Shown: positions 156 through 63,991, counted from the stretch's first letter. The stretch is DNA of 64,000 nucleotides from Candidatus Omnitrophota bacterium (GCA_043808095.1 JAZDFF010000024.1:7868-71867); one strand, 5' to 3'. Notes: generated from the letters alone by a model not told the origin. Program-made: numbers and translations.

Positions 156-1338
156 AACCATCACCTCCTGTAAAATTTTTTATCCTTTCCTTCCAATCCT
201 CTACTGTCCAAGCCATCTCTTTTTCTTTTAACAAACCCAGGTCCCTTGCTTGAGTATGAGCAAATTCACAGAGATATTCTACGGGCGTATCCAATTTACC
301 GTATTCCATCCAGGACTTGCCAGGACACTGTTCGCACAAACCCTTTAGAAAACAACGGGCACAACGGACAAGATACTCAGGATTGACAGCCTTTATTTCT
401 CTCACCCCAGGGAAGAAATTAGTTAAGGCATCTTTTAAAGATCCTTTCCTAAGATTATAAACCATATCAGGATGCCTGAGATAGATACAAGGCTGAAAGC
501 CTCCGTATGCATTAATGTAACCGCTCCTAATTCCTGAACCACAGGAAAAAAGCCTATCCCCCATAGGCCTAGTAAACCTAGAGCAGAAGATGCGCATTTC
601 ATCAATATACACTTTTCGTCTTCTGGTGAAAATCTTCAGCCCTTCCTTATGCGAAACCCTGAGTTTCTTTATTGCCTCATTCTTCTTTGTATCATCCTGC
701 CGACAGCGCAGGTTAAAAAACATGGAATACGACGGCGGCCCAGGCATCCAAGGGATAGTAGCTGCCCAGGCCTCAAATTCATCTATTTCATCTTTATTAC
801 TAGGCAAAACAGCGCCCTTGACAATAAAAGGAATCTTTTTCTCTAATAATAAATTTATACCACGCCAGGCAGCCTCAAATGAACCAGGTGTTCTGGTTAT
901 GGCTTCATATGAACTCTTCTTCATGCCATAGACCGAAACCTCCATCTTCCCCAAAGGAGGGATACAATAAAATAAATCTGCCAAATGCGGGGTAATCAAA
1001 GTAGCATTGGTAAAAATTGAAACTTTAAGCCCCTGTTTCCTGGCAAATATGTAGAGCTCCTCAAAATCCTCTCTTAAAAGCGGTTCTCCTCCGCTAAATC
1101 TGACTATAATACAGCCTAAGGAGGCTGCTTCCCTAAGGATGTCTTTTATCTCAACCTTAGAAAACTCTTTCTCCATTGCGCCTAGATCATCTTTTGGCAG
1201 ATTAATATAACAATGAATACAATTATTATTGCAACGTTCTGTAAGCTCGATATCCAGACTGCCTAAAAGCGGAAGCTTATCTTTCCATAAAGATACCTTA
1301 TCTATCCCTAATTCTTTAACGTAAGTCTTTCGTCCCAT
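139..1338 (-). CDS. radical SAM/SPASM-domain protein (putative peptide-modifying maturase)
   Basis: 399 aa. CNNNCIHC (Cx3Cx2C) radical SAM cluster near the N-terminus, with FSGGEPLL. C-terminal Cys-rich SPASM-like region (CGSG...CARCFLKGLCEQCPG). Confidence 0.85.
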   Translation of the reverse strand: MGRKTYVKELGIDKVSLWKDKLPLLGSLDIELTERCNNNCIHCYINLPKDDLGAMEKEFSKVEIKDILREAASLGCIIVRFSGGEPLLREDFEELYIFARKQGLKVSIFTNATLITPHLADLFYCIPPLGKMEVSVYGMKKSSYEAITRTPGSFEAAWRGINLLLEKKIPFIVKGAVLPSNKDEIDEFEAWAATIPWMPGPPSYSMFFNLRCRQDDTKKNEAIKKLRVSHKEGLKIFTRRRKVYIDEMRIFCSRFTRPMGDRLFSCGSGIRSGYINAYGGFQPCIYLRHPDMVYNLRKGSLKDALTNFFPGVREIKAVNPEYLVRCARCFLKGLCEQCPGKSWMEYGKLDTPVEYLCEFAHTQARDLGLLKEKEMAWTVEDWKERIKNFTGGDGYGIKS

Positions 1339-26476: not shown

Positions 26477-26479
26477 ATT

Positions 26480-26765
26480 TTGGATGGAGCCCCACGGCTT
26501 TACCCGCTTCGACTCGCGTCGAGCGAGGCGAGCAGCCGTGGTACCTGAAAAACCCGCCTACGCTTCGCTTCGGCGAAGTCCGCTCGCCTCGCGGCGAAGC
26601 CGCGGGCCTTCAACACGTAATGGCGACATCTCGCCGTAGCGCACCTCTCTGCATTTCCGCCATAATACGTGGCGAGATCTCGCCATTCGCGAAGGCGGAT
26701 GGCGGACATCCCCAGGTTCACACCTGGGGTTTTCCCGCCAAAGGCGAGGCTCGCCAAAGGCGGCT
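26480..26765. repeat. GC-rich (about 65 percent GC versus <40 percent background) palindrome-rich intergenic element
   Basis: Contains perfect palindromes ggcgagatctcgcc and ctcgccaaaggcgag (x2), and cgcttcggcgaagtccgctcgcctcgcggcgaagc. Shares ctcgccaaaggcgag with the element at 45200-45480. An 85-aa Ala/Arg-rich ORF (26500-26757) lies wholly inside it and is probably spurious. Confidence 0.6.
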
Positions 26766-43873: not shown

Positions 43874-45190
43874 TTACTGCCTAAATTGGCCCGGGCCTCT
43901 TAACCATCTATTTACGGCAGCAATCGCCCGGCCTATTTTTTCCGGGATAATTATGGCGCCTTTTGCCTTTACATGTTCTCCGGTAATTTTCTCTACGTAT
44001 AGGCTGACCGAGCGGACATTATTATCTTCATTAAGTTCTTTGACGATATTCTTTCCATCCACGCGGGCTTCAATTATATGTTCTCCGGCGGCTAATGCCG
44101 GAATCATAACCTCTAATTTAACCTCCTGACCCGGGTCAAGAATGGGTAATATCTTAATATAAAAGGGCTTTTGGTCTTTTAAGCCGATAGCGCAGAGAAC
44201 GTTATTGAGCGTATCTTTTCCGGAATTTTTTACAAGGACCTCGGCCTTTACGGACTGGCCTTCTAAAGTGATTTCTTTATCTAAAACGAAACTCGTCACT
44301 GCCACATCCTTGACACCTGTGCCATATGCACCCGGCTTTACCGTAATCCAAATGGAGGCACTGTTATTTGCCCTTTTTCTTTCCGGAATGATGCCCTTAC
44401 TGTTTACCACAAACTCAACCTTACGCCCGCCGCCCGCGGAAAAGGCATAATAAAGACTGGTTTCCTTATTTCCATATGCCGGCAAATTCTCAAGTGGCTG
44501 GTTTGCTACAAGCTTGCCATCGGCATACATATCTAAATCTGCCCCCCATATTTCAAGGTCAGAGTTATTATTAACTGTCACCAGGAAATTTACGCTAATT
44601 CCGGCAGGAGGCTCAAGCGTACTGACGCCTATCTTCTTATCCAATGCCAGGTCAATGCGTTTGCCTTTTCCGGCAAAGAATATCCCGGGCGTCAGATCGC
44701 CTTCGACCCTAAATTGTTTTGCTGATAAGTTATTGCCTTTATCTGTCTCGCTGACCCGGCCTCCCGGGTCAACGGTTACGCCAAGTTCATAGTGCGCCGG
44801 ATAAACTCCTTTATAATTCAAAACAAAATCCCTGGTTTTTCCTGCCTCGACCCTTCCTAATACTTTTTTGCCTTTTAGATAGCCGTGAAAACGATCTTTC
44901 TCAAAAACATTCAAATTCCTAATCTCATATTTAACTTTCACATTCCTGGCATCTACCCTATTTAGATTTCCAATAATAATTTTAATCTTTCTATTTTCAT
45001 TAATGTATAACGGACTGTCCAGATTAACTATTCCAGAGACGATTAAATCCGGGCAAGATTCTCCTTCCTGTTGGGCGAGAACTAAAAATTTTGTACTGTT
45101 AAGAAAGAAAATAAAAAAGGACGTCAAAGAAAAAATGAATAAAACCCTGTACATTTTTCTTTTAACGCCCATGGAAGAAATATTATACAA
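43874..45190 (-). CDS. secreted CARDB-repeat protein (paralog of the C-terminal part of the 1190-aa protein at 53920-57492)
   Basis: Signal peptide. Blocks ending in E.D.GNN / ELNEDNN typical of CARDB domains. GVYPAHYELGVTVDPGGRVSETDKGNN parallels GVYPADYKLTVLVDPQGAIAETDEYNN. C-termini ...RWLRGPGQFRQ and ...SWLRGLGKPK are similar. Confidence 0.6.
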   Translation of the reverse strand: MYNISSMGVKRKMYRVLFIFSLTSFFIFFLNSTKFLVLAQQEGESCPDLIVSGIVNLDSPLYINENRKIKIIIGNLNRVDARNVKVKYEIRNLNVFEKDRFHGYLKGKKVLGRVEAGKTRDFVLNYKGVYPAHYELGVTVDPGGRVSETDKGNNLSAKQFRVEGDLTPGIFFAGKGKRIDLALDKKIGVSTLEPPAGISVNFLVTVNNNSDLEIWGADLDMYADGKLVANQPLENLPAYGNKETSLYYAFSAGGGRKVEFVVNSKGIIPERKRANNSASIWITVKPGAYGTGVKDVAVTSFVLDKEITLEGQSVKAEVLVKNSGKDTLNNVLCAIGLKDQKPFYIKILPILDPGQEVKLEVMIPALAAGEHIIEARVDGKNIVKELNEDNNVRSVSLYVEKITGEHVKAKGAIIIPEKIGRAIAAVNRWLRGPGQFRQ

Positions 45191-47165: not shown

Positions 47166-47232
47166 CTTAAACTCCTTTTCTCCCTCGCTAAAAGGGTATC
47201 AATCTCATACAATAAGTACGTGTCCCCGGAAT

Positions 47233-47748
47233 TTATCCAATCAGCACCAGGCCGAAATAATTCGCCTTGCATCTTATTGAATCCAGGGTATCGATTTTGA
47301 AACCGTTGTTGCGTACGGTTTTAAAAACATCTATTCCGCAGGCCTCCATAGAAGGCCTGGCATTTTCCCGATGCCGGCACTCGCCTTTTAAGTTACATTC
47401 CCGGCAAAATCTGCAAGGGCCTGCGCCCATACCCAGGGCTTTATAATATCCGGAAAAGAACGCCTCTTTTTCTATCTTCAGGACGATCTTTGAGATATCT
47501 ATTCTCGAGCCGCTCTGGCAATGGATGATGATTGCCTTCCTGAAAGAATCAAGTATCTTTTGCGTCTCGCTAGGCCCAGGCGAATATGGCGGGCAGGTAA
47601 AACACTCGCCAAATCCCGAGCAGCCAAATTGGCATTTGTATCTTACCCAGGAGGCGGTCTTCACGGTTTTGACCTCAATGACCTTACTGTCTTTTGCGCC
47701 TAACTCTACGGCCCTGTCTTTTAATTGCTCGATAGTCTTTCTGTACAT
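47233..47748 (-). CDS. DUF2284-domain metal-binding protein
   Basis: CQFGCSGFGECFTCPPYSPG and a second CRFCRECNLKGEC Cys cluster are characteristic of DUF2284. Confidence 0.65.
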   Translation of the reverse strand: MYRKTIEQLKDRAVELGAKDSKVIEVKTVKTASWVRYKCQFGCSGFGECFTCPPYSPGPSETQKILDSFRKAIIIHCQSGSRIDISKIVLKIEKEAFFSGYYKALGMGAGPCRFCRECNLKGECRHRENARPSMEACGIDVFKTVRNNGFKIDTLDSIRCKANYFGLVLIG

Positions 47749-47834
47749 AATTTTAAACCAGTGGCCAAGCTTGTCCTGAGCATAGTCGAAGGGTGGTCGA
47801 CTGTTTGAGTGAAAAAGTATGTGTCCCCGGAATT

Positions 47835-48680
47835 CTAACGCAGAGAAAAAGCTATCTCTACGGCAGATTCAATCTTAAAAGGGATAAAGATATCCGTATC
47901 AGGAATCTTCAGGTGGCCGGAGAGCTGAAATTTCAGGGGATTCCGTTTGATAATTTCGTTGCGTATCAATCTACTCCAGATATTTCCTATCCGGATTGAA
48001 TCTTTTATCTGGTTTGATTGCGAGCCCCCGAATAAAGTCCGGGTAAGTTTACTTCTGGCGATATCCTTACCTTCCAGGGTATATATGCGGATTACGCCGT
48101 CTTCAAGGACCAGGTCAATACTCAAGGGATTAGTTATACCCAGGATAAATTCAATAGATGAGTTCCCCAAAATGGTGGAATCAAGTTTTGAGGAAAAAGC
48201 AACATAAAGAGGCCGGACTATAATTTCTTTCAGGGCCTTAAGATGCAGCACCGCGACATTGCTTTCAATTGGGATATGCAGGCCTAACTTTTTATAAGTA
48301 AAACCGGTGCGCATGAATACGGTTATGCTTTTATTGTTTAATACCGCCAAACCGAGATGAATGGATACCGGGGCTTCTAACTCCTGCTTAGATGTTACGC
48401 TCTTGGCTTTCCAGTCTAAAGTGTCTTGCGTCAAAATAACTCCGTTTTCATTCTGAATCTCCAGGTATATCTTCTCCAAATCAAGCGAGCTTTCCGTGGG
48501 GTTCTGGATGACTATTTTTCCCGAGACGATAATTTTGTTATTTTTCAGAGAGGGCTCAAGGTGAGCAATAATCTGAGGTATTTTAAAACTATTTTTACCG
48601 ACAACTAATTTCACAAGCGAAGCGCAGCCGCAGATAATAAACGCGGCCAAAATTACCGAGAAAATGGAGCCCACCCGAGC
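47835..48680 (-). CDS. hypothetical secreted/lipoprotein-like protein
   Basis: Signal-peptide-like ...SIFSVILAAFIICGCAS. No homology recognised. The ORF-track N-terminal 45 aa (to 48809) are Arg/Ala-rich and fall in a GC-rich repeat element; the real start is probably GTG near 48675. Confidence 0.4.
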   Translation of the reverse strand, partial: ARVGSIFSVILAAFIICGCASLVKLVVGKNSFKIPQIIAHLEPSLKNNKIIVSGKIVIQNPTESSLDLEKIYLEIQNENGVILTQDTLDWKAKSVTSKQELEAPVSIHLGLAVLNNKSITVFMRTGFTYKKLGLHIPIESNVAVLHLKALKEIIVRPLYVAFSSKLDSTILGNSSIEFILGITNPLSIDLVLEDGVIRIYTLEGKDIARSKLTRTLFGGSQSNQIKDSIRIGNIWSRLIRNEIIKRNPLKFQLSGHLKIPDTDIFIPFKIESAVEIAFSLR

Positions 48681-48835
48681 TAAAGCCCGGGGTTCCAAAG
48701 GCGGAATACTCAAGCGGCCACATCTTATCCGCGCCCTAGCCCCCGCAGGGGGCATGGGCGCGGTTTTCAGGCCGCGGAGTACAAAAATTATTTTCTTCTT
48801 AAATTTCATGGAATACCCCGGGCAGCTGGTCTAAC

Positions 48836-52261: not shown

Positions 52262-53554
52262 TCAATTTTGATTGAACTTTTTATTTATGAGTTCAAATAA
52301 TCTATCCTTTACTGCTTTAAATGCCTGCGGCATCGGGGAGGCCGCGGGAAAACCCTGATAGAATACCCTTTTTTCCGCATCTGCAATTTTTACGGATATC
52401 TTATGCAGGTAATATCTCTGACTTTCTCCTGCCCCGCCATAGGTAGTCTCTAATTCCATAAACCCCGCCTGGTTTATTAAACCGATTAAATCGCTGACTT
52501 CGTCTGCTGAAAGGGTCGTTTTTATGGTCCTTAAGTCTTCTCTGTCCCAACAAGGGGCCTGTCTCATCCATTGTTTACACTTGCCGTCTTTGTCTTCAAA
52601 ATAGGTGTAGGATAATTGTGCCTGATTTATTTCGATGTCTTTATAAATAAGTTCCGAAGAAAAGTAATAGCTGACAGAAAATTGCTCGGCTGACTTTTCC
52701 TGCATGGCTTTTAAATGACCGGATATCCGGGTCTCTGCGCTGGGAAGCGCATTTAAGTCTTCTACTATCAGCCGAATATCCGCAGGCAATTTCATCCCCA
52801 GGAGCTTAAAGGGAAAACACATCTCCACAAAATCGCCTCCAAAGGCGATATAGGCGGGTTTATCATAACTTGCCCGATTTCCGCCGGCTAACTCCTCATA
52901 CTCGCAATTAAAGGTGGTGCCGTAATCTGCCTCCTGCTCATTATAGCTTTTTATCTTCTCAATCTGATACCAGGCAGCGGGTCTAATCTCTTCTATAGGA
53001 GCGCCTTCTTTCTTAACAAATCCTTCGGGCAGGTATATGCGCCAGTCCCAGCCGGGATATACGTCCTTTATGTGTCTTCTGGCCCCGGTTGCGCTACTGC
53101 CGTCGGCATCCAGATATAGGTATCCGATATGACCGGTGGTCTGTTTCTTGTCAAAACGTTCCTTAACGCCGGGTTTAATTTCCAGCAGAAGAAAAAGATT
53201 CTGGACATCGTAAGCCAGGCGCACTGATTTTATCCGCCTGGTATCTTCAAACATAGGCATGTTATATATATTTGACCACTCGAGATTCTCTAAAGGACTA
53301 ATCCCGGCTGCCTGCCAATCAGCGATATCGCCATCAATAATGATAGCACCCGATGCTAGGTCTTTGATATCTTTATAGACAACCTCATCCATAACCTTGG
53401 CCGCTGAGGTTCTTGACTCTTCTTTGACAGGTTGATAACTTCCTCTTTTGACAGGCTGATAACCTCGTCTTGGAAATAACCAGATAGACAATACCCCTGC
53501 CAAAATAATAATGCTGATTAAGAATATCTTCGTCTTTTTCATAAAAATCCTCAC
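52262..53554 (-). CDS. hypothetical secreted protein
   Basis: N-terminal signal/TM (IFLISIIILAGVLSIWLF). No homology recognised. Confidence 0.4.
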   Translation of the reverse strand: MRIFMKKTKIFLISIIILAGVLSIWLFPRRGYQPVKRGSYQPVKEESRTSAAKVMDEVVYKDIKDLASGAIIIDGDIADWQAAGISPLENLEWSNIYNMPMFEDTRRIKSVRLAYDVQNLFLLLEIKPGVKERFDKKQTTGHIGYLYLDADGSSATGARRHIKDVYPGWDWRIYLPEGFVKKEGAPIEEIRPAAWYQIEKIKSYNEQEADYGTTFNCEYEELAGGNRASYDKPAYIAFGGDFVEMCFPFKLLGMKLPADIRLIVEDLNALPSAETRISGHLKAMQEKSAEQFSVSYYFSSELIYKDIEINQAQLSYTYFEDKDGKCKQWMRQAPCWDREDLRTIKTTLSADEVSDLIGLINQAGFMELETTYGGAGESQRYYLHKISVKIADAEKRVFYQGFPAASPMPQAFKAVKDRLFELINKKFNQN

Positions 53555-53612
53555 TGTTTAGAAGGCCTTATTGCCTGGGCTTTCCCAACCCCCGCAGCCA
53601 CCTGTCTATCAG

Positions 53613-53922
53613 GGCAATTCCGGGGACACGTACCTTTTTCAATTCCGTGCAATTCCGGGGACACGTACCTTTTTAAACTCTCTTCCTTCCTCAAAATAAT
53701 GAACCTGGCGATATTTCGAGCGAATGGAGATTTTAGCCAAGGAAGCTTGAGCATTTTCGGGAATCCAAACGCGGAAGCATTTGGATGGCGAGGATGTTTG
53801 AGCTCGTCCTGGGGCGGAAGCCCCGACGAGCGAGTTCCGCAGCCACCGAAAATGCGAAAGACCCTTGGCGTGCCCCAAAGGGGCAAAATCGACCCTGAGC
53901 GAGAAAGTCGCCAGGTTCATTA
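53613..53922. repeat. GC-rich intergenic element with two tandem copies of the conserved 24-nt motif (minus orientation) and 17-bp terminal inverted repeats
   Basis: caattccggggacacgtaccttttt at 53615-53640 and 53650-53677. aataatgaacctggcga (53696-53712) is the exact reverse complement of tcgccaggttcattatt (53908-53924). Flanked by an imperfect ~38-bp direct repeat (53571-53612 versus 53925-53962). Confidence 0.6.
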
Positions 53923-56900
53923 TTTAGGCTTTCCCAACCCCCTCAACCAACTGTCTATTGCCCCCTGGATCTGACCTATTTTTTCAAAAATTGCACCAGT
54001 AACTTTTTGTTTTGCCTCTTGTTCTAACTTTTCTTTCGTTAACTTCTCCACGTGCAAAGAGGCAGTCATCACATTATTGGTTTCGTTAGTCTCTTTAATG
54101 ATGTCTTTGCCGTCTACCCTGGCCTCTATGGTATGATCACCGGCGATTAATGCCGGTAATGTCGCGGATATCTTGATTTCCTGGCCCGGGTCTAATATCG
54201 GCACTACCTTAACATAGACAGGTTTTGTACCACTGGGGCCAATAGTACACAAAACCCCACGCAATATATCCTGGCCGATATTCTTGACTGAAGCCTGGGC
54301 AGTAACCGGCTCTCCCTGCAGGCAGGAGGTCTTGCTCAAAGAGAAATTCGTCACCGCCACATCCTTGTAGCCTGTGCCGAGAATACCAGGCTTGACCTTT
54401 ATTTTGACTGTAGCCGCATTATTATTTTCATCTTTCTCAGGAATGGCTTTTTTGGCATCCACCATAAACTTAACAGTACAGTCGCCGCTTTTTGAAAATG
54501 TATGTCTGAAGGTAACGGTCCTTTCGCTGTTCGCGTAAAAATCGCCCAAGGCCTGGCCGGCTTCAAGCTCATCGTCAATAAGCATATCCAGGTCCGCGCC
54601 CCAGACGGTAATGCCGCAATTATTGTGCACCGTAACTTCAAAGGTCACCGGTAAATCCGTAGTCGGCTCTTTGTTACTTACTTTAATATCCTTGTCAATC
54701 GACAGGTCCGCGTCTTTGCCGCTAAAATATATCTGGGAGGTAACTTCTCCGGACACATTGAAATATTTCTCTAACTTATTATTATATTCGTCGGTCTCGG
54801 CAATCGCGCCTTGAGGATCAACCAAGACCGTCAGTTTATAATCGGCAGGATATACCCCTTTATAATCCACAATAATGGAAGCTCCGCCTTCCTGTCCGAC
54901 CGAAGGAATTACCTTTGCGCCTTTTCGATAACCGTGGCCGGCCGTGACGTCATTTAAAGCCAGGTTCCAGAACTCATATTCCACCCTGACATTTTTGGCC
55001 TCCACCAGATTAGGATTGCCGATGACAATAGTAATGGCACGGGTTTCACCCACCTCCAAAGGACGGTCTAAATTTACCACGTCAGCCACAATTAAATCTG
55101 ACGCCTCGGCGCGGATATTGCGCGGCGGCTCATAGGCATGGTAAGTGCCGAAATGAAAATCCTTGGTGTTATTTTTCTCATCCGTTTCCGGGATTTTGTT
55201 GTCTTTGTCCACGATTAGTTGCATTTTACAGTTATTGCATAGCTCTTTATCCAATTTAACTACTTTAAGTTCATGCGAGCGGATATCCCCCAAATTTTTG
55301 GAGTAACCCGCAACCGGCTTTTCCGTATACGAATGATATTCAAGCGCATCCAGATTCAACTGCTTTGCGGTTTGGCTGCCCCGGTTGTAAACCTTTGCCG
55401 TGATATTCGGGCCCACTCCCCCATAGGAGGCAGCATCCAGTACCACATCTATTCCCTGCACACCCGGCATCAGCGTGCCGACGGAAATTGACTTTTCGGC
55501 AGTTACTAATTCCTGACCGCCTGCCTCCAGCACCACCTTAAAGGTGTGGGTGCCGCCGCGCACAGTCCAGAGGATAGGTTCGCTACTACCTAAACCCACG
55601 CCCTGGTTTTCTCCAGGCGCCACACTAAGCCTGACAGTCTTAATCAGCTCCCCGTCCACAAAAATCTTGGCAATAGCATCTTCCTTTGCGCCTTTATTGG
55701 TGACGCTAAAATAAAATTTCAGCTGCTCGCCGATTTTTGGCGAATCGCTGCTAAGCATCAGGCTATAAACAGGTATCTCCCAGGCATAATCCGGCAGTAA
55801 CACCTCTGCCCGGGCTTCTGCATGGTTATTCTTCTCATTAAAATCGCTTTTGCCCCTCAGGCCCCTTTCCACCTCGCACCTTAAGACGTAACTTCCTTTG
55901 TCCTGGGGCGTCCATTTAAAGGTCAGATTGGCCTCCTCGTTGGGTTTTAAATAGTGATTCAAACCCAGTCTCTGCTCGCTCACCTTTGCATTATTTACGA
56001 GGAGTTCAGCCACCGGATTCAAATCTTCGCTGTAGCCGATATTTTTGATGCGCACGCTGATGGTTACGGCCTTGCCCGCATAAATGCGCTGTGGCAAATC
56101 GTTAAATGCCACGGTTAGATCCGGGGCAATATTCAGGTTAATCGCCTCGCTGTATTTTTCATCATTATCGTAATTCCATTCATAGCTGCGTTTGTCCTCA
56201 TTGACCCTGACCAGAAACCTGTTACTGGTAAAGGGAAGTTTTGCCTTAACTTCAATCCTATGCGTTGCCCCGGCAGAAAGAGCCGGTAATTCCAGATTTT
56301 CTCCTACGGGCCGAAACGCGTTATTGTCTGAGACTGCTCCGATCTTAATGGAGGTCGGGCTGCTGGTAAGACCGCTGTCATTTTTGATTTGCGCGCTGAC
56401 TGTCACTTCGTCTCCAATACGCAAATCTTCGGCCTTCTTGTTAAGAGGCAGGGTTACTTCCACGGAACTTACTACCAGGTCCGGCCATTTCGGCACTTGG
56501 GGGTCAGGTATCATCTCTACCCGCGCTAATACCCCGGAACAAAAAGCCCGGTTAATCTTTACCTGCTGCAGGGTAATGGGTAATAATTTATGCAGGATCA
56601 CCCCAACCCAGTTTCTCTTTTCTTTGATTCTATCCCGATATTGAGCAACCTCAATGTTATCCCGAAGTAGCTCAAAAGTGCCTACCATATACCATCTTTC
56701 CTTGAGTTTCTTGTCCATCTTGGCCTTAAACTCCCGGACTATCTCTTCGTCGCTTTTCTGGTCCTTATACTCATTGACCAGGCTGGTAAGCTTAGGCATC
56801 ATCTCATCGTAAGATTTTATTTTCTCCTTAAGGAATTTCTTGAGGCCTGCAACTTGCTCCGGCGTAATCTTCATTTCAAACTCTTTCTTGGCCTCCTCTA

Positions 56901-57492
56901 AGACACCCAGGGGGGTATTACCAAAATTATCCTTAAAATACGTCCGCTCGGTATCATAATGTTGCTGGGTTCCCATACCCGTAACACCGTCTTTGATCGT
57001 ATCACTGATTTCCATAAAGGTGTTGTACATCTCAATAAGATTGGCTATCTCACCTATAAGCGGAATTACCTCTCCTGCGACCTGACCGACAGCCCGGCCG
57101 GTTGCCTTAAGAGACTTGCCTACTACATCAGCTATACTATTGCCGACTTCCTGGGCGGTATTAGATGCGCCGAACCCATACTCCATGGCTATGTCAGAGG
57201 CCTGCTGGAATCTTTTCAACATTACATCCACGGCCTCATCAAAGCTCGGAAATGCAGACCAGTAGGATGAAGATGCCTCATTTAATCTGGACATATCTAT
57301 GAATGCCTTTTGCAGTTTTTGCAAATACAATTTATCCATCTCAGAAACCTGCGCGGCCAAATATTCGTTTGCCTGCGCCCTTACTTTAGCCGGGGCGCTA
57401 TCCCACCATTCAGCCCTGGCAATTTCGGGCCTTAAGATAAAAAATGCCGTCATAACGACTGCCAGGCATAAGACGAATTTCTGCTTAACCAT
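53920..57492 (-). CDS. large secreted multi-CARDB-domain protein (surface/adhesin-like)
   Basis: Signal peptide MVKQKFVLCLAVVMTAFFILRPEIARA. N-terminal helical region followed by at least 6 Ig-like repeats ending in ...E.NNH/..ETNNV (CARDB-type E.NE.NN blocks). Confidence 0.6.
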   Translation of the reverse strand: MVKQKFVLCLAVVMTAFFILRPEIARAEWWDSAPAKVRAQANEYLAAQVSEMDKLYLQKLQKAFIDMSRLNEASSSYWSAFPSFDEAVDVMLKRFQQASDIAMEYGFGASNTAQEVGNSIADVVGKSLKATGRAVGQVAGEVIPLIGEIANLIEMYNTFMEISDTIKDGVTGMGTQQHYDTERTYFKDNFGNTPLGVLEEAKKEFEMKITPEQVAGLKKFLKEKIKSYDEMMPKLTSLVNEYKDQKSDEEIVREFKAKMDKKLKERWYMVGTFELLRDNIEVAQYRDRIKEKRNWVGVILHKLLPITLQQVKINRAFCSGVLARVEMIPDPQVPKWPDLVVSSVEVTLPLNKKAEDLRIGDEVTVSAQIKNDSGLTSSPTSIKIGAVSDNNAFRPVGENLELPALSAGATHRIEVKAKLPFTSNRFLVRVNEDKRSYEWNYDNDEKYSEAINLNIAPDLTVAFNDLPQRIYAGKAVTISVRIKNIGYSEDLNPVAELLVNNAKVSEQRLGLNHYLKPNEEANLTFKWTPQDKGSYVLRCEVERGLRGKSDFNEKNNHAEARAEVLLPDYAWEIPVYSLMLSSDSPKIGEQLKFYFSVTNKGAKEDAIAKIFVDGELIKTVRLSVAPGENQGVGLGSSEPILWTVRGGTHTFKVVLEAGGQELVTAEKSISVGTLMPGVQGIDVVLDAASYGGVGPNITAKVYNRGSQTAKQLNLDALEYHSYTEKPVAGYSKNLGDIRSHELKVVKLDKELCNNCKMQLIVDKDNKIPETDEKNNTKDFHFGTYHAYEPPRNIRAEASDLIVADVVNLDRPLEVGETRAITIVIGNPNLVEAKNVRVEYEFWNLALNDVTAGHGYRKGAKVIPSVGQEGGASIIVDYKGVYPADYKLTVLVDPQGAIAETDEYNNKLEKYFNVSGEVTSQIYFSGKDADLSIDKDIKVSNKEPTTDLPVTFEVTVHNNCGITVWGADLDMLIDDELEAGQALGDFYANSERTVTFRHTFSKSGDCTVKFMVDAKKAIPEKDENNNAATVKIKVKPGILGTGYKDVAVTNFSLSKTSCLQGEPVTAQASVKNIGQDILRGVLCTIGPSGTKPVYVKVVPILDPGQEIKISATLPALIAGDHTIEARVDGKDIIKETNETNNVMTASLHVEKLTKEKLEQEAKQKVTGAIFEKIGQIQGAIDSWLRGLGKPK

Positions 57493-59004: not shown

Positions 59005-59224
59005 ATTGCTCCTTTTTAACCATTCTACCTCAAACAAAAAATAAAATCAAACCAACAAAAAAATATTATGTTGGAAAAACTGGCGTCAGAACTCGGGCCA
59101 TATTTACCTCAATCTTTTAATTAATTTTAGGCAGTTCTGAAATGAGATTTTCTTTTATCTTTTAACTTGCCTCTTCTTATTCTTTATAGTTTTGTTATCT
59201 AATCTATTGATTTTAGATATAAAT

Positions 59225-59668
59225 CTACTTCAACACCTCCAAAATATCATTCTCATCGGCTATTTGTAATCCCTTAATAATCTTATTCTGCCACTTTTTT
59301 AAAGGAACTGAATTGAAAACCTTCTTTATAATGCCTGTTTCGCCCTTATCAATCAGTGACTTTAATATTTCAATGGCAATATTTCTATCCTTAACCGCTT
59401 TATATTCTTTTTGCCTACGCTGAAAGATAATTAACTTATGTAAAGCGAAGTTAGCCGGATGAGGTAAAGTTACATAAAAATCTTCTACTTTTACCTTGAT
59501 AGTGTTTACAGACAGAAAACTCAAAAATCTCAGAGCAACTGCATTCATTCCTAATTTTGGCAAAGGGACAGGTTTATCTGTTCCCTTTCCTTTCTCCGGT
59601 ACTAAGAATTCAAGTAATAAATCCGGATGATCTAATTTAATATATCCCTTGTTTAAAGATTTAGGTTA
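59225..59668 (-). pseudogene. C-terminal fragment of a nucleotidyltransferase-fold (GSU2403-like) protein; no ATG start, begins right after an in-frame stop
   Basis: Open frame PKSLNKGYIKLDHPDLLLEFLVPEKGKGTDKPVPLPKLGMNAVALRFLSFLS...LPHPANFALHKLIIFQRR... resembles the C-terminal half of GSU2403-type nucleotidyltransferases. Only a TTG start is available. An HNH endonuclease gene occupies the position where the N-terminal half would be. Confidence 0.4.
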
Positions 59669-59706
59669 CGGATCTACAAAAAATGAAATTTAGCCGAGAA
59701 AAATAT

Positions 59707-60375
59707 TTAATACTGATCGTGTTTTTCTAAGTTACATCTTTCGCAAGATGTAATCAGATTGGATTCATTGTTATCTCCACCTTTGTCTAACGGTAGAATA
59801 TGGTCTATATGTAATTTTGCACCATCTTTTGGTGTTCTGCCACAATATTGACAAGTAAAAGCATCTCTTTGAAAAATATGGAATCTATTCACACTTTGTG
59901 ATGGTCTGGATGAAATCCTAAGAGAATATAGCAATGATTTTATTTTAGATAATTTTTTAATTAAATTTTTCCGTAATGCTATTCTTTCCTTTAAATCTTT
60001 CGGTACTTTCTTTCCATAATATTTAGTTTTTACCTTATTCCCTTCTCTGTAAGCGAGATAATAATAAAGCTTGCCTTTGATATCCTTCAATTGAAATGTT
60101 CCTTTAGGAGAAGCATTAATTGCCCTCTTTATATCTTTATAGTAATTAAGATAATAATTTCTCCATACTAAAAAAGACCTCTCCCAATTTTCAATAGCAT
60201 TCTTCTTAGCCATAATCTTACTATTGCTTTCCCATTTATCTGTTTTGTAATAACAGAAGACACAAATACCATTTGTTAAAAGGCAATCATTACTGAGATG
60301 TTCAAAACATTTTTTGCAGTATCCCATTATACTCCTGTATATTTTTATTATAACATAAAATAAATTAATTATCAA
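59707..60375 (-). mobile_element. HNH endonuclease gene with N-terminal Cys-rich zinc finger, in a very AT-rich islet
   Basis: C-terminal CQYCGRTPKDGAKLHIDHILPLDKGGDNNESNLITSCERCN is a canonical HNH motif. N-terminal CKKCFEH...CVFC. Region 59040-60480 is markedly more AT-rich than its surroundings. Confidence 0.7.
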
Positions 60376-60507
60376 ACAAATTTATATTTGTTGGTTAACA
60401 TATATCTACATTGGGCAAAATTCCCCGATTGGCGTTTAAATTTTATCCCTATTCTACGGTGTTTTTCGAATATCAGTCAGTTCTGACACGAGATTGTGTC
60501 CAGCGTC

Positions 60508-60924: not shown

Positions 60925-60975
60925 TTCTCCGACATCCCGATCACCCCGGGCAAAAAGTGTTTGTCCCCGGAAGTT

Positions 60976-61632
60976 TTATAACCAGCCTTTGTCCTGCCAG
61001 TACTTGTACTCTTCTTTCCAATCCTCTTTTCTTAATTGCATTATTCTCTTAAAATGCTCTTTGCCGGCCTCGATGATTTTCATCTGATCAACAAATACAT
61101 TTTTATCCTTTATATCCCGGAGGATTTTTTTACCTAACTGATAAGCCTCCTCTGCCTTTTCCTTTATGGCATACGCAGAAGACGATACGCCTCCCGAATA
61201 CTGCGCACCGCAGGTATGAGCGTAATATTTTATATAATCCAGCACATCTTTATCCTGCCCGCTTCCCGAGGAGACAACGCCGGCAATGTATTTACCGAGG
61301 AGCCGTTTACAGTGGATAAAATGCGCCGAGCGGTCAAAGAGGGCCTTCATCGAGGCCGTAACCTGGTTTATATAATTAGGCGAGGCCAGGATTATTCCGT
61401 CAGCCTCAAGCATCTTTTCAAGAATTATTGAAATACCGTCTTTTAGCGAACAATTAAGAATCTTTTTATGGCAGGCCTCGCAATGCTGACAAAAATTTAT
61501 ATGATACTCTAATAAATGAATGACCTCGCATTTAGCGCCCTCATCAGAAAAGGCCTGCAAGACCTCCCCTGCCAGAAGAAAGGTCTGGCTTTTTTCTTTA
61601 TGGGGGCTGGAAGAGATAACCAAAATTTTCAT
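60976..61632 (-). CDS. flavodoxin-like NAD(P)H-dependent FMN reductase / iron-sulfur flavoprotein family
   Basis: MKILVISSSPHKEKSQT...IILASPNY flavodoxin-like fold motifs. Cys cluster CQHCEACHKK as in Isf-type proteins. Confidence 0.65.
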   Translation of the reverse strand: MKILVISSSPHKEKSQTFLLAGEVLQAFSDEGAKCEVIHLLEYHINFCQHCEACHKKILNCSLKDGISIILEKMLEADGIILASPNYINQVTASMKALFDRSAHFIHCKRLLGKYIAGVVSSGSGQDKDVLDYIKYYAHTCGAQYSGGVSSSAYAIKEKAEEAYQLGKKILRDIKDKNVFVDQMKIIEAGKEHFKRIMQLRKEDWKEEYKYWQDKGWL

Positions 61633-61771
61633 TTTAAAAAAGTGCGTGTCCCCGGAAATTTTACTGATTTATTCTGTATCTTTTTTAATATCAGTCAGTT
61701 ATCAAGTTCTGACACGGATTTTTCGGTTTTTTTTGACACGGTTTTTTCCCTATTTTTTCTCTGAAATAAAT

Positions 61772-62056
61772 TTATGCTAAAGAAGCTCGATGGGACAAGA
61801 TGTTCGCCCAGGTAAGCATAGATTCAGCCCAATCTGCGTCCATACGGACATCATGGGAGAGGCGCTTGAAGTCATTCTTGAACCATTCATAGGTGGGTGA
61901 AAAACGGAGCGATTTCGGGGCGGATTCCAAGGCCTTTAGATATTCTTGGGTCTGGGCCAAGAACTGTTCAACTCGCTCCTTGCGGCCTTCCATGGCCCAA
62001 GTGCACAGACGACCCAAGTTTACGGCGATATTCAAAGTTAATTCCTTAGCTGTCAT
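61772..62056 (-). CDS. hypothetical small protein
   Basis: 94-aa ORF. No homology recognised. Bounded on both sides by GC-rich repeat elements. Confidence 0.3.
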   Translation of the reverse strand: MTAKELTLNIAVNLGRLCTWAMEGRKERVEQFLAQTQEYLKALESAPKSLRFSPTYEWFKNDFKRLSHDVRMDADWAESMLTWANILSHRASLA

Positions 62057-62358
62057 AATCTACTCCAGTAATTAGAACTTCCGGATCTTTTTGGCACGGA
62101 TGATTAATAACATTTTTACAATATTATAGCATGGAATACCCCACAGGCAAGCCCATGTTACCTAAATTTACCCTCCTTCGCTGAAGAACTTTCGTCTTCA
62201 GCTTCGGCGGGTTATCCCCCTATTTCATATACGACTTGCCCTTTAGTGACATCCTCCGAAGCCCCGACGTATCTTCGGGGCGAAGGGGGATAAAATTAAA
62301 AATGTAGCCTAAATTATCTGTAAAAAGTGCGTGTCCCCGGAAATTTATTAAGATTCGT

Positions 62359-63453
62359 TTATTGCTTGCAGGTTTTGCCAACCAGATCTAAATAATCGTC
62401 TATGCGAATAGCTCCTTGGGGTATTTTGCAATCTGGATTAGTGTTCCCACCTCCGCCGATAGCCCAGGTATCTTCACAGAATTTACCTAAATCCTTCCCA
62501 TCAAAGGATTCTTTCCGAATGGCATATACTTCTCCGCCAGATTCACCAATGAGAAATTGATTGTTGTAAACAAATAAACCCTCATGGCGGCCAAAATCTC
62601 TATATCTTTTCATCACATCATAAATTATTGAGACCCTGTCATCGGGTTTAATTTCTTCAGAGCGTATATAATGATCGTATATTTGATTTTCCCGTTTCTG
62701 CTTTAGGGGCAGCTCGGTCAAGACTTTTTCCCTCTCATTAAAGTAGAGATTTTTCATATAATCCCATAAGCCATAAGCATAAAGTTTAACCCCTTTTCTA
62801 AAAATATATACCTTTAATTCATTGCCACTTAATTTAACATCATAGGATTCGTTATCTGCGCCTAAAAAGGAAATCCCTGATAACATGCTATTGCGGTCTC
62901 GTTGAGACCCTGAAACGGTACTTGTTATTTTTTTTATCTCGACTTTATTTTTTGTCTTCTCATCGACAATGGTTTTAATTTTCCCTTCACTGATATCCAT
63001 TAGATCTATCTCTTTGACAGAAAAAATATAGTAATATCCCTCTTGTGTAAAACTGATTGGTAACTTTTCGATGTTACCATCCTTTGTTATCACATATTCA
63101 TCTGTAACATGTTCTGGCATATAAGTCCCTTGGGGATGACGCATAAGAAATCTATCATTATAATAAAAGAGGTGATAGAATCCTGTGCTACTTATTCTAC
63201 AACCACTGCAATTCCAATCTTCGCATTTGCAATTTAAATAATCGGTAAATATCTTTAGTTTTTCCTTGAATTTTAAATATTTAGGAACTGATTCTTCTCC
63301 TGTTTCCCATTGCGGTCTTGGGGCATTCCTGTTGCACTCTTTTAATATGTCATCCGTAACATCGGCAAAGGATAAATTTAACCATAGAAATGAGGCAGAT
63401 ATTATTAAATAGCATATCCGCCTGTTATGTTTAATGCTCTTTATAAACTTCAT
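62359..63453 (-). CDS. hypothetical secreted Cys-containing protein
   Basis: Likely start MKFIKSIKHNRRICYLIISASFLWLNLSFA (signal peptide). No homology recognised. Confidence 0.4.
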   Translation of the reverse strand: MKFIKSIKHNRRICYLIISASFLWLNLSFADVTDDILKECNRNAPRPQWETGEESVPKYLKFKEKLKIFTDYLNCKCEDWNCSGCRISSTGFYHLFYYNDRFLMRHPQGTYMPEHVTDEYVITKDGNIEKLPISFTQEGYYYIFSVKEIDLMDISEGKIKTIVDEKTKNKVEIKKITSTVSGSQRDRNSMLSGISFLGADNESYDVKLSGNELKVYIFRKGVKLYAYGLWDYMKNLYFNEREKVLTELPLKQKRENQIYDHYIRSEEIKPDDRVSIIYDVMKRYRDFGRHEGLFVYNNQFLIGESGGEVYAIRKESFDGKDLGKFCEDTWAIGGGGNTNPDCKIPQGAIRIDDYLDLVGKTCKQ

Positions 63454-63634
63454 GTATCCTTTTGGGGATAATAGCTCCTTACCTTTCACGCTACACTTCC
63501 CGTCGCTCATTTCACTTTTCTCCTTTTTTACTTTTAAAGTATGGCAAAAAGTATGATGTTAGAATTCGGGACTTCGCGGGACTCCCTTCGGTCGCGAGTG
63601 ATCTAGAGAAAAAGTGCGTGTCCCCGGAATTAAA

Positions 63635-63991
63635 TTATTGCCTCGCTTTTAAAGCATTAATAAGGTTATATATAAAGTCTATAGCGACAATTAAGACAGG
63701 TATACTCCAGATCGCCTGTATGATAAGACGATTCTTAAGTATTAACTCGGCCGAATCAGGATTTCTAAAAATTACGCGACCAACAGTATTGAACATTAAT
63801 GCATTTATACCAGGAACCGAATAGAGAAGCGCAATAAGTAAAAAAGTATAAATAAATTTAGTTTTCGGATTAATATCCTCAGGCACAAATCTAAGGCCCC
63901 TGGTACCAAAAGATAAATCTGAACCAAAAGAAAATAAAGAAAAATTATAATTTTCAATAGCAAAAAATACACCTAAACCTATTAGAGCCAA
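63635..63991 (-). CDS. hypothetical membrane protein (may extend beyond window end)
   Basis: Three hydrophobic helices. ORF start sits within 10 nt of the window edge. Confidence 0.3.
   Translation of the reverse strand: MALIGLGVFFAIENYNFSLFSFGSDLSFGTRGLRFVPEDINPKTKFIYTFLLIALLYSVPGINALMFNTVGRVIFRNPDSAELILKNRLIIQAIWSIPVLIVAIDFIYNLINALKARQ

Follow-up and report, generated by a model that had tools for sequence, protein, structure and literature searches.

A composite insert of a structured non-coding element and REP-like repeats splits a gene pair in a Candidatus Omnitrophota bacterium

What has come between two genes that adjoin each other in related genomes, and how did it get there? The question is raised by a junction in a 64,000-nt stretch of DNA from a Candidatus Omnitrophota bacterium (GCA_043808095.1 JAZDFF010000024.1:7868-71867), which derives from a metagenome-assembled genome (MAG) and is referred to here as the window. 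On its - strand, a gene for a 1190-aa CARDB-domain protein (53920-57492; identified from its open reading frame [ORF] and translation, with a Pfam CARDB match at E = 6e-56) is followed by a gene for a 426-aa protein (52262-53542). A first-pass annotation of the window had noticed an inverted repeat, two copies of a short motif, and a relic of the CARDB gene's 3' end between the two, and had read the junction either as an insertion with a long duplication or as the scar of a tandem gene duplication followed by loss of one gene body. The comparisons reported here show that about 317 bp of new non-coding DNA (53610-53926) parts two formerly adjacent genes in this lineage. They also show that the insert is flanked by an imperfect 32-35-nt direct duplication of the last CARDB codons, the upstream copy being the working gene end and the downstream copy the relic, and that the insert is a composite of two unrelated parts: a structured non-coding element, here called OSE, and two tandem repeats resembling repetitive extragenic palindromic (REP) sequences. 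The surroundings are those of a cellular genome of ∼40% GC, in which 65 of 66 large ORFs lie on the - strand and the gene content is ordinary bacterial (Pfam scans of ORFs, 40.8-64 kb).

The direct duplication consists of 53578-53609 and 53927-53958, which are identical at 29 of 32 nt, bearing out the three mismatches that had been reported. It is 32-35 nt long, or 42 nt when read past the stop with a 3-nt gap, and the longest exact run common to both copies is 16 nt. The relic (53569-53612, - strand, with its stop at 53569-53571) translates as ...ALIDRWLRGLGKPRQ-stop, while the working gene end reads ...AIDSWLRGLGKPK-stop. The working copy (53927-53958, - strand, encoding ...IDSWLRGLGKP) is contiguous with the gene body and continues its homology to the orthologue on a related contig, L035. 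It ends ...KPK-stop, and its final codons are supplied by the insert (CCT AAA TAA TGA); the last two codons and the stop of the 1190-aa gene (CCT AAA TAA) thus extend into the inserted element, the stop codon itself (53920-53922) being overlapped by the right arm of the inverted repeat. In local alignment, relic and working end score 27. None of 1,000 dinucleotide shuffles of the downstream 517 nt reaches this score (9.5±1.3; maximum, 16), so the check by shuffling that had been proposed speaks against a chance match.

A second comparison asked for by the first-pass annotation, that with the 3' end of a CARDB paralogue, identifies the source of the relic. The 438-aa CARDB paralogue in the window ends ...NRWLRGPGQFRQ-stop, and the tail is therefore a feature of the family. 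At the DNA level, the relic scores 27 against the end of the 1190-aa gene and 9 against that of the paralogue; because it is 91% identical to its own gene's end and weakly similar to the paralogue's, the duplication derives from the 1190-aa CARDB gene and is recent relative to the split from L035 and a second related contig, L036. As to the last residues, the relic and the 438-aa paralogue both end ...RQ-stop, the L035 protein ends ...Q-stop, and the working copy ends ...K-stop. The C-terminal tail of this CARDB group follows the pattern x-I-x-x-W-L-R-G-x-G-x-x-x-(Q)-stop (window, 43874-43924 and 53920-53960; L035, 4250-4302; L036, 5510-5562) and may be a sorting or anchoring signal. A diversity-generating retroelement, with the relic as template repeat and the gene end as variable repeat, was considered and rejected: from relic to gene, the mismatches are G>T, C>T, and C>A and so are not confined to adenine, and scans of ORFs between 40.8 and 64 kb turned up no reverse transcriptase domain.

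Empty sites in two relatives give the event a direction. The 426-aa protein, which matches NCBI V1674_04160 of a Candidatus Omnitrophota MAG at 100% identity, has a signal-peptide-like N terminus (judged by eye) and gave no Pfam domain. A search of 5.8 billion proteins returned only two other homologues, P0002 (62% identity) and P0003 (59%). Both homologue contigs, L035 and L036, are syntenic with the window and carry a single CARDB gene (1193 and 1184 aa, respectively), after which the homologue of the 426-aa gene follows directly. On L035, the CARDB protein ends ...QGAIDGWLRGGRSPSQ-stop and the ATG of the next gene lies 14 nt on; on L036, it ends ...FNRWLRGWGKSKE-stop and the signal-peptide coding region of the next gene starts within about 25 nt. 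These sites, found by the comparison of homologous loci that had been suggested, show the ancestral state, a CARDB gene with the 426-aa gene 14 to about 25 nt behind it. The window's relic has its stop 26 nt from the ATG of the 426-aa gene, with a GTGAGGA ribosome-binding site between them. The relic occupies the position of the gene end in the empty-site relatives and is therefore the displaced original 3' end, which keeps the ancestral Q-stop and the ancestral spacing to the next gene. The earlier reading as an insertion with a long duplication is thereby supported, in the form of an insertion flanked by a long imperfect copy of the gene end.

The larger part of the insert, the OSE (53694-53925; family-conserved span, 53697-53922), is given here on the - strand, the one co-directional with its neighbours. 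It is bounded by a perfect inverted repeat of 18 nt (53694-53711 and 53908-53925); the 17-mer repeat noticed earlier lies inside it, and the overlap of its right arm with the CARDB stop is real. The folding energy of the 232 nt so enclosed is -121.6 kcal/mol for the + strand (z = -10.2) and -114.9 kcal/mol for the - strand (z = -9.6), and no fold as good came from any of 200 shuffles. Its architecture comprises a closing helix, a long irregular stem, a junction, and three peripheral hairpins. Rfam 15 gave no gathering-score match in the whole window and none at E ≤ 10 in 53400-54100, and the OSEs of the homologous loci L108-L112 gave none at E ≤ 1. The identity of a 6S RNA was rejected because an Rfam match is lacking and because L108, which carries an OSE, has a separate bona fide 6S RNA (1409-1570; Rfam, 64.9 bits) upstream of its rarA-like gene. 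No second OSE copy was found in the window. By blastn, the OSE has no match in plasmids or phages; in viral contigs, two conserved patterns taken from it gave no hit, and the 17-mer of the inverted repeat gave two chance matches, neither with extended similarity.

Since gene callers often place spurious ORFs on such DNA, homologues of the OSE were sought by using the element's own pseudo-ORFs as protein queries. The - strand pseudo-ORF retrieved P0004-P0008 (58-79% identity), and the + strand pseudo-ORF retrieved 25 clusters from a 50%-identity library as well as P0035-P0038. From these, six further DNA copies (L108-L113) were obtained; all seven copies are 77-93% identical and ∼190-235 nt long, and all seven share the conserved ends AATGAAYCTGNCG...CGCCAGRTTCATT along with a nearly invariant core. 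Outside the OSE, no similarity between the loci was detected (tblastx, E < 1e-5). The contexts differ accordingly: the element lies between the CARDB gene and the 426-aa gene in the window, between a rarA-like gene and a DUF5981 gene in L108, after a tRNA that ends 7 nt upstream in L109, between two uncharacterised ORFs in L110, upstream of ribF in L111, next to mreBCD and with no upstream co-directional gene in L112, and after a gene for a membrane-protein-like product (by eye) in L113. Each locus holds one copy, and nhmmer found no more in 780 kb. Where a cluster member bears an organism name, as three do, the source is a Candidatus Omnitrophota MAG; the clusters comprise 1-4 contigs each.

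The pseudo-proteins read the conserved OSE DNA in all three frames (e.g., P0009, P0011, and P0012), and the L108 and L111 copies have a 1-nt indel near the start. As homologues occur in every frame, the OSE is non-coding; the ORFs of 91, 93, and 111 aa that cross the window copy were rejected as protein-coding genes, their homologues being frameshifted relative to each other. What is conserved is the fold. In the alignment of the seven sequences, 66 pairs were scored and 96.9% of cells are paired. Both sides have changed in 18 pairs, compared to 6.7±1.9 in column shuffles (0 of 500 reach 18) and 0-2 with slid partners. By this measure, the base pairing is maintained by compensatory substitutions, and the structure is under selection. 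Peripheral hairpins have been replaced (L111) or lost (L109, L110, L112, and L113), and the long central helix and the internal loops are invariant. The OSE is thus an undescribed, covariation-supported family of structured elements that has no Rfam entry and is so far confined to Omnitrophota.

Two observations concern what lies directly beside the element. The spacer between the second REP-like unit and the OSE (tttttaaactctcttccttcctca; 53670-53693, without strand) is similar on the - strand, in its OSE-proximal part (TTGAGGAAG), to what flanks the L113 copy (TTGAGAAAG). In tblastx, the match of L113 to the window extends ∼30 nt past the element, and about 10 nt of flank beyond the stem are common to both, which hints that more than the stem-bounded unit moved. 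Separately, three otherwise unrelated loci have a further conserved structured piece (GGGTGAC...GGCAGGACCC, closed by a stem) immediately after the OSE, namely L111 (556-725), L112 (4082-4153), and L113 (∼250-330, reverse strand); in L111, it lies between the OSE and ribF. The L111 and L112 copies of this piece gave no Rfam match at E ≤ 1.

The other part of the insert consists of two exact 19-mers, AATTCCGGGGACACGTACC, which start at 53616 and 53651 on the + strand and form the cores of 35-nt tandem units that are 31/35 identical. Unit 1 (53609-53643; core 53616-53634, then a T-run) abuts the relic, and unit 2 (53644-53678; core 53651-53669, then a T-run) follows it. The first-pass annotation was right that these copies run opposite to all others in the window; the spacing of 34 bp that it gave is corrected to 35 nt, start to start. 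The six other copies, one of them degenerate, are all on the - strand, for a total of eight against a shuffle expectation of 0.00. All window copies are intergenic and occur as singlets or as the one tandem pair, and five of the six - strand copies begin 0-15 nt after a stop codon. They lie at 47215-47233 (overlapping the stop of a DUF2284 gene, 50 nt before purC), 47816-47834 (beginning 1 nt after the stop of ORF 47835-48809), 60956-60974 (the degenerate copy, AACTTCCGGGGACAAACAC, 2 nt after the stop of an FMN-reductase gene), 61641-61659 (8 nt before the ATG of that FMN-reductase gene), 62326-62344 (15 nt after the stop of ORF 62359-63510 and followed by GC-rich hairpins), and 63613-63631 (4 nt after the stop of ORF 63635-63991).

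The wider distribution of the motif connects it with transposase genes. A scan of a genome collection found it once, as a hairpin doublet with a 22-bp stem in another Omnitrophota MAG, and a scan of metagenomes found 81 copies in 71 contigs of 38-67% GC, as singlets, as tandem arrays with stutters, and as inverted doublets. The doublets form hairpins with loops of 6-16 nt in L034, L069, L093, and L101 and have spacers of about 50 nt in L047 and L084. In low-GC contigs, the motif is intergenic and in either orientation; in high-GC contigs, some copies lie inside RHS ORFs. On L052, the motif and inverted copies flank an ORF (658-1212) whose product starts MARMGRIVAPLMPHHVVQRGN... and matches Y1_Tnp (PF01797, E = 2.5e-14). 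RayT homologues occur in 7 of the 71 motif-selected loci (L052, L058, L049, L066, L047, L041, and L080); five loci have the motif, in the same orientation, upstream of rayT, and L052, L058, and L049 have an inverted copy downstream. Inverted repeats that flank the gene for a REP-associated tyrosine transposase (RAYT) are the defining REP/REPIN-RAYT arrangement (PMC3116915, PMC3337134). Judged by these associations, the motif AWTTCCGGGGACACRYACY is a REP-like repeat tied to RayT/Y1 transposase genes. No OSE locus other than the window carries the motif and no motif locus carries an OSE; the two components of the insert are therefore independent.

Several candidates for another identity of the motif were rejected. 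The motif resembles the SP6 and K11 promoters, but a promoter (phage-type, sigma-54, ECF, sigma-32, or a TAnnnT -10 element) was discarded because genes running in one direction have it between them in either orientation (L037); moreover, a separate sigma-70-like promoter lies between motif and rayT, and the matches in viral contigs are single chance ones. Literature searches with the motif sequence returned unrelated primers only, and a general search for non-coding RNA or repeats in Omnitrophota returned nothing relevant. Further observations on the motif are recorded here in their own right. Across L037-L107, a core of 14-19 nt is almost unchanged from 38% to 67% GC, with flanks that vary from a T-run in low-GC contigs to AATTCC in high-GC contigs. 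On L034, the motif and its inverted copy (1142-1197) form the 22-bp-stem hairpin within a continuous 598-aa MenD-like ORF (by eye), which may be an in-frame intragenic insertion. On the high-GC contigs L057, L092, L095, L102, and L107, the motif lies inside or between RHS/YD-repeat segments (by eye), in some cases in frame and in others breaking the frame, and on low-GC L052, the RayT gene adjoins an RHS/Hint-like ORF. A start codon follows the REP core by 7-9 nt at the FMN-reductase gene (window, 61632-61659) and at the listed rayT start (L052, ∼1212-1237); as this leaves the FMN-reductase gene no room for a ribosome-binding site after the core, its transcript may be leaderless. Finally, GC-rich hairpins, one with a GAAA loop, lie at ∼62170-62300 on the - strand, just downstream of the REP-like copy at 62326-62344; a 94-aa ORF (61772-62056) follows after about 110 nt, and the hairpins have no Rfam match.

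On which strand might the OSE act, and to what end? Its - strand sense is co-directional with the neighbouring genes in all six informative loci. The L113 copy was found through an ORF on the opposite strand, and the fixed orientation is therefore not purely an effect of ascertainment. In the window, L108, and L111, the stop of the upstream gene falls within the first bases of the OSE (TAATGA). On the gene-sense strand, a T-rich tract comes after the closing stem, and L112 has a promoter-like site matching at 10 of 12 positions just upstream of the OSE, again in the gene sense. The tRNA that ends 7 nt before the OSE of L109 points to the gene-sense strand as well. We infer that co-transcription of the OSE with the upstream gene, on the - strand of the window, is the favoured arrangement, and our best guess for the role of the OSE is that of an RNA rod, co-transcribed with that gene, by which the gene's 3' end is marked or insulated. 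On a transcript shared with its upstream neighbour, it would form a rod of about -115 to -120 kcal/mol, which might serve as a 3'-end barrier or as a processing site for a double-strand RNase and would uncouple two genes that had once been coupled. Such 3' barriers or processing sites are formed by REP, ERIC, and Correia elements (PMC2649163, PMC2229807, PMC3184786). The REPs would be selfish, RAYT-mobilised repeats that settled beside the OSE. The duplication may have arisen in the insertion or recombination event itself, through insertion at a staggered break or through homology-facilitated illegitimate recombination with an OSE-carrying donor allele, in either case leaving the conserved WLRGxG tail intact. 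Taken as a whole, the account in which a composite insert splits the gene pair, the relic is the original end, the OSE is a co-transcribed 3'-end rod, and the REPs are RAYT-mobilised seems to us the probable one, held with some reserve.

That reserve has several grounds, each of which weighs against some part of the account. Hairpin 1 carries a GNRA loop on the + strand in six of seven copies, including an independent GAGA on the replaced stem of L111, and the invariant tandem G·A internal loop is likewise on the + strand. On either strand, cells with G·U are roughly as frequent as those with A·C, and the window copy has 1 G·U among 86 pairs; this also fits a constraint at the DNA level. None of the OSE copies in L108-L113 has a flanking direct repeat (flanks inspected), and the window duplication brackets the OSE and the REPs together, not the OSE alone. 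HUH/RAYT transposition is not known to make a target duplication. As for the repeats, no RayT gene was found in the 64-kb window, and a single REP unit has no self-complementary stem in the inspected consensus, in which only 4-nt palindromes occur (AATT, CCGG, ACGT, and GTAC), nor does it carry a GTAG or CGTC tag.

These points bear directly on two other readings of the OSE. One treats it as a DNA-level mobile element, akin to a MITE (miniature inverted-repeat transposable element) or a palindrome transposed as single-stranded DNA, in which pairing is kept for a DNA hairpin or cruciform and the duplication is a long target-site duplication. It would explain the terminal inverted repeats, the seven copies in different gene contexts, the orthologous site left empty in two relatives, and pairing in which nearly all pairs are Watson-Crick and G·U does not outnumber A·C. 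The fixed orientation could then reflect replication direction, as for HUH elements, and GCGAAAGC and GCGGAAGC-type loops are very stable as DNA too. We nonetheless regard this reading as rather unlikely. MITEs share the terminal inverted repeats with the OSE, but six of the seven OSE copies lack a target-site duplication, so that the short duplication expected of a MITE is not present at every copy. No sign of high copy number is seen, with one copy per locus and 1-4 contigs per protein cluster, and Pfam scans gave no transposase among nearby ORFs. The wholesale replacement of hairpins around a core that is 77-93% identical is more like an RNA gene diverging between species. The other reading makes the OSE a free-standing small-RNA gene on the + strand, convergent with the CARDB gene, overlapping its stop by 6 nt, and driven from the AT-rich stretch after the second REP-like unit. 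The loops argue for it: the GNRA loops of hairpin 1 (GGAA, GAAA, and GAGA) are joined by GGAA in hairpin 2 of three copies, and the tandem G·A loop exists on the + strand only. That strand also folds slightly better (-121.6 versus -114.9 kcal/mol; alifold, -72.2 versus -67.1), and a promoter-like site matching at 9 of 12 positions, TTTAAA-17-AATAAT, lies at 53672-53700. Yet at every one of the six informative loci, such a gene would be antisense and run head-on to the local gene direction, and this in genomes whose strand bias is extreme. Across the family, its -10 hexamer (AATAAT) is not conserved, no REP lies upstream at the other OSE loci, the better promoter-like site of L112 is on the opposite strand, and no consistent T-tract follows the + strand stem; we consider a small-RNA gene unlikely.

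Three further explanations concern the duplication rather than the element. The scar named as an alternative in the first-pass annotation, in which tandem CARDB genes lost the second gene body and kept its last 14 codons, draws on the CARDB paralogues with the same C-terminal tail in the window and on the boundary between REP unit 1 and the relic, which could be a deletion junction. It does not hold up well: both relatives have a single CARDB gene and then the 426-aa homologue, neither CARDB gene body nor sequence resembling that upstream of CARDB was found between the repeats, the relic matches its own gene's end at 91% and the paralogue's weakly, and OSE and REPs account for the intervening DNA. 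We hold this history to be very unlikely. Alternatively, the direct repeats could be attL and attR of a site-specific integrative element that brought a replacement gene end and has since been mostly deleted. Integration of phages and islands into gene 3' ends, such as that of e14 and phage 21 in icd, leaves a pattern of this kind, and the CARDB locus resembles it in having a working replaced end, foreign DNA, and a displaced, slightly divergent original end with imperfect repeats. It differs in that only 317 bp lie between the repeats, all of them OSE, spacer, or REPs, that no integrase or recombinase was found among the ORFs scanned in 40.8-64 kb, and that other OSE copies have no such repeats, which leaves an att origin highly improbable. 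Least credible of all is that the relic is a chance match or the arrangement an assembly artefact, a doubt that the origin of the window in a MAG might raise. The shuffles already tell against chance, and an exact shared stretch of at most 16 nt is too short to mis-join contigs; furthermore, the relic sits exactly at the true gene end of the relatives, and OSE and REPs each occur independently in other data sets.

Returning to the favoured account, in which a co-transcribed rod lies beside RAYT-mobilised repeats, how do its two components compare with known systems? Like REP/REPIN-RAYT sequences (PMC3116915, PMC3337134, PMC3733652), the window motif is 19-24 nt long, extragenic, present in 8 copies in 64 kb, and often placed right after stops; it occurs as singlets, tandem clusters, and inverted hairpin doublets, and it flanks Y1_Tnp in inverted orientation in L052, L058, and L049. 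It departs from them in that the unit has no obvious palindrome and no evident GTAG/CGTC tag (compare PMC3733652), that the same core spans 38-67% GC and is also found inside RHS/YD-repeat and MenD-like ORFs, and that the window lacks RayT. The OSE, in turn, is similar in size (190-235 nt) and in its terminal inverted repeats to transcribed palindromic elements of intergenic DNA, namely the Correia elements (CREE) of Neisseria, ERIC/IRU, and RUP/BOX (PMC2649163, PMC2229807, PMC3184786, PMC10969869). It lies in or beside transcription units at gene ends, would fold as a long RNA hairpin, and varies in location between genomes, as these do, and its ends in the window can supply a stop codon and -10-like hexamers. 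Unlike them, it has no TA or other target duplication and no sign of high copy number, and its conservation spans a phylum, with compensatory changes, internal loops that do not vary, and peripheral hairpins that can be replaced. The orientation of the OSE is strictly fixed, whereas CREE and ERIC are found both ways round. With rod-shaped or multi-stem bacterial RNAs such as 6S RNA and raiA-type RNAs, the OSE shares a length of about 200 nt, pairing of 5' and 3' ends, helices backed by covariation, what appears to be a single copy per locus, and conservation within a phylum; it differs in lacking an Rfam match and a large central bubble and in abutting or overlapping the stops of protein genes.

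A few features of the window lie outside these subjects. Exact-protein look-ups of the window genes found nothing on record. Within the 5' end of the 426-aa gene, a 24-nt tandem duplication (53423-53470; 21/24 identical) yields a repeated (G/S)YQPVK(R/E) peptide. A low-GC patch (59200-60400; GC of 0.30) holds an HNH endonuclease ORF (59707-60375) and a truncated NTP_transf_8 ORF (59225-59563), a full-length homologue of which is syntenic in L036. An intergenic stretch of 287 nt (26477-26763) has 60-67% GC in a genome of ∼37-40% GC and folds at about -55 to -61 kcal/mol per 120 nt. It contains nested inverted repeats and a repeated GCGAAGGCGGAT, has no Rfam match, and may be another structured element.

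Taken alone, the junction is a product of ordinary genome decay and repair. Its value is that an odd arrangement becomes a dated evolutionary event with an empty-site control, in which a surface-protein gene pair was split by non-coding DNA while the conserved protein tail was preserved. The REP/RAYT repeat is unusual in being nearly identical over contigs of 38-67% GC, since REPs are normally lineage-specific. The OSE is a candidate for either a novel class of RNA or a structured mobile element of a new kind, in a phylum known almost only from metagenomes. More tentatively, and with less conviction than we attach to the history of the junction, it may be an undescribed, Omnitrophota-specific class of structured non-coding RNA or structured mobile nucleic-acid element, each genome holding about one copy, with a conserved core, internal loops that stay invariant, and peripheral hairpins that can be swapped. 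Such a class would move from one gene 3' end to another and would serve a definite function in the cell, for instance, as a module for RNase processing or insulation or as an RNA that binds protein.

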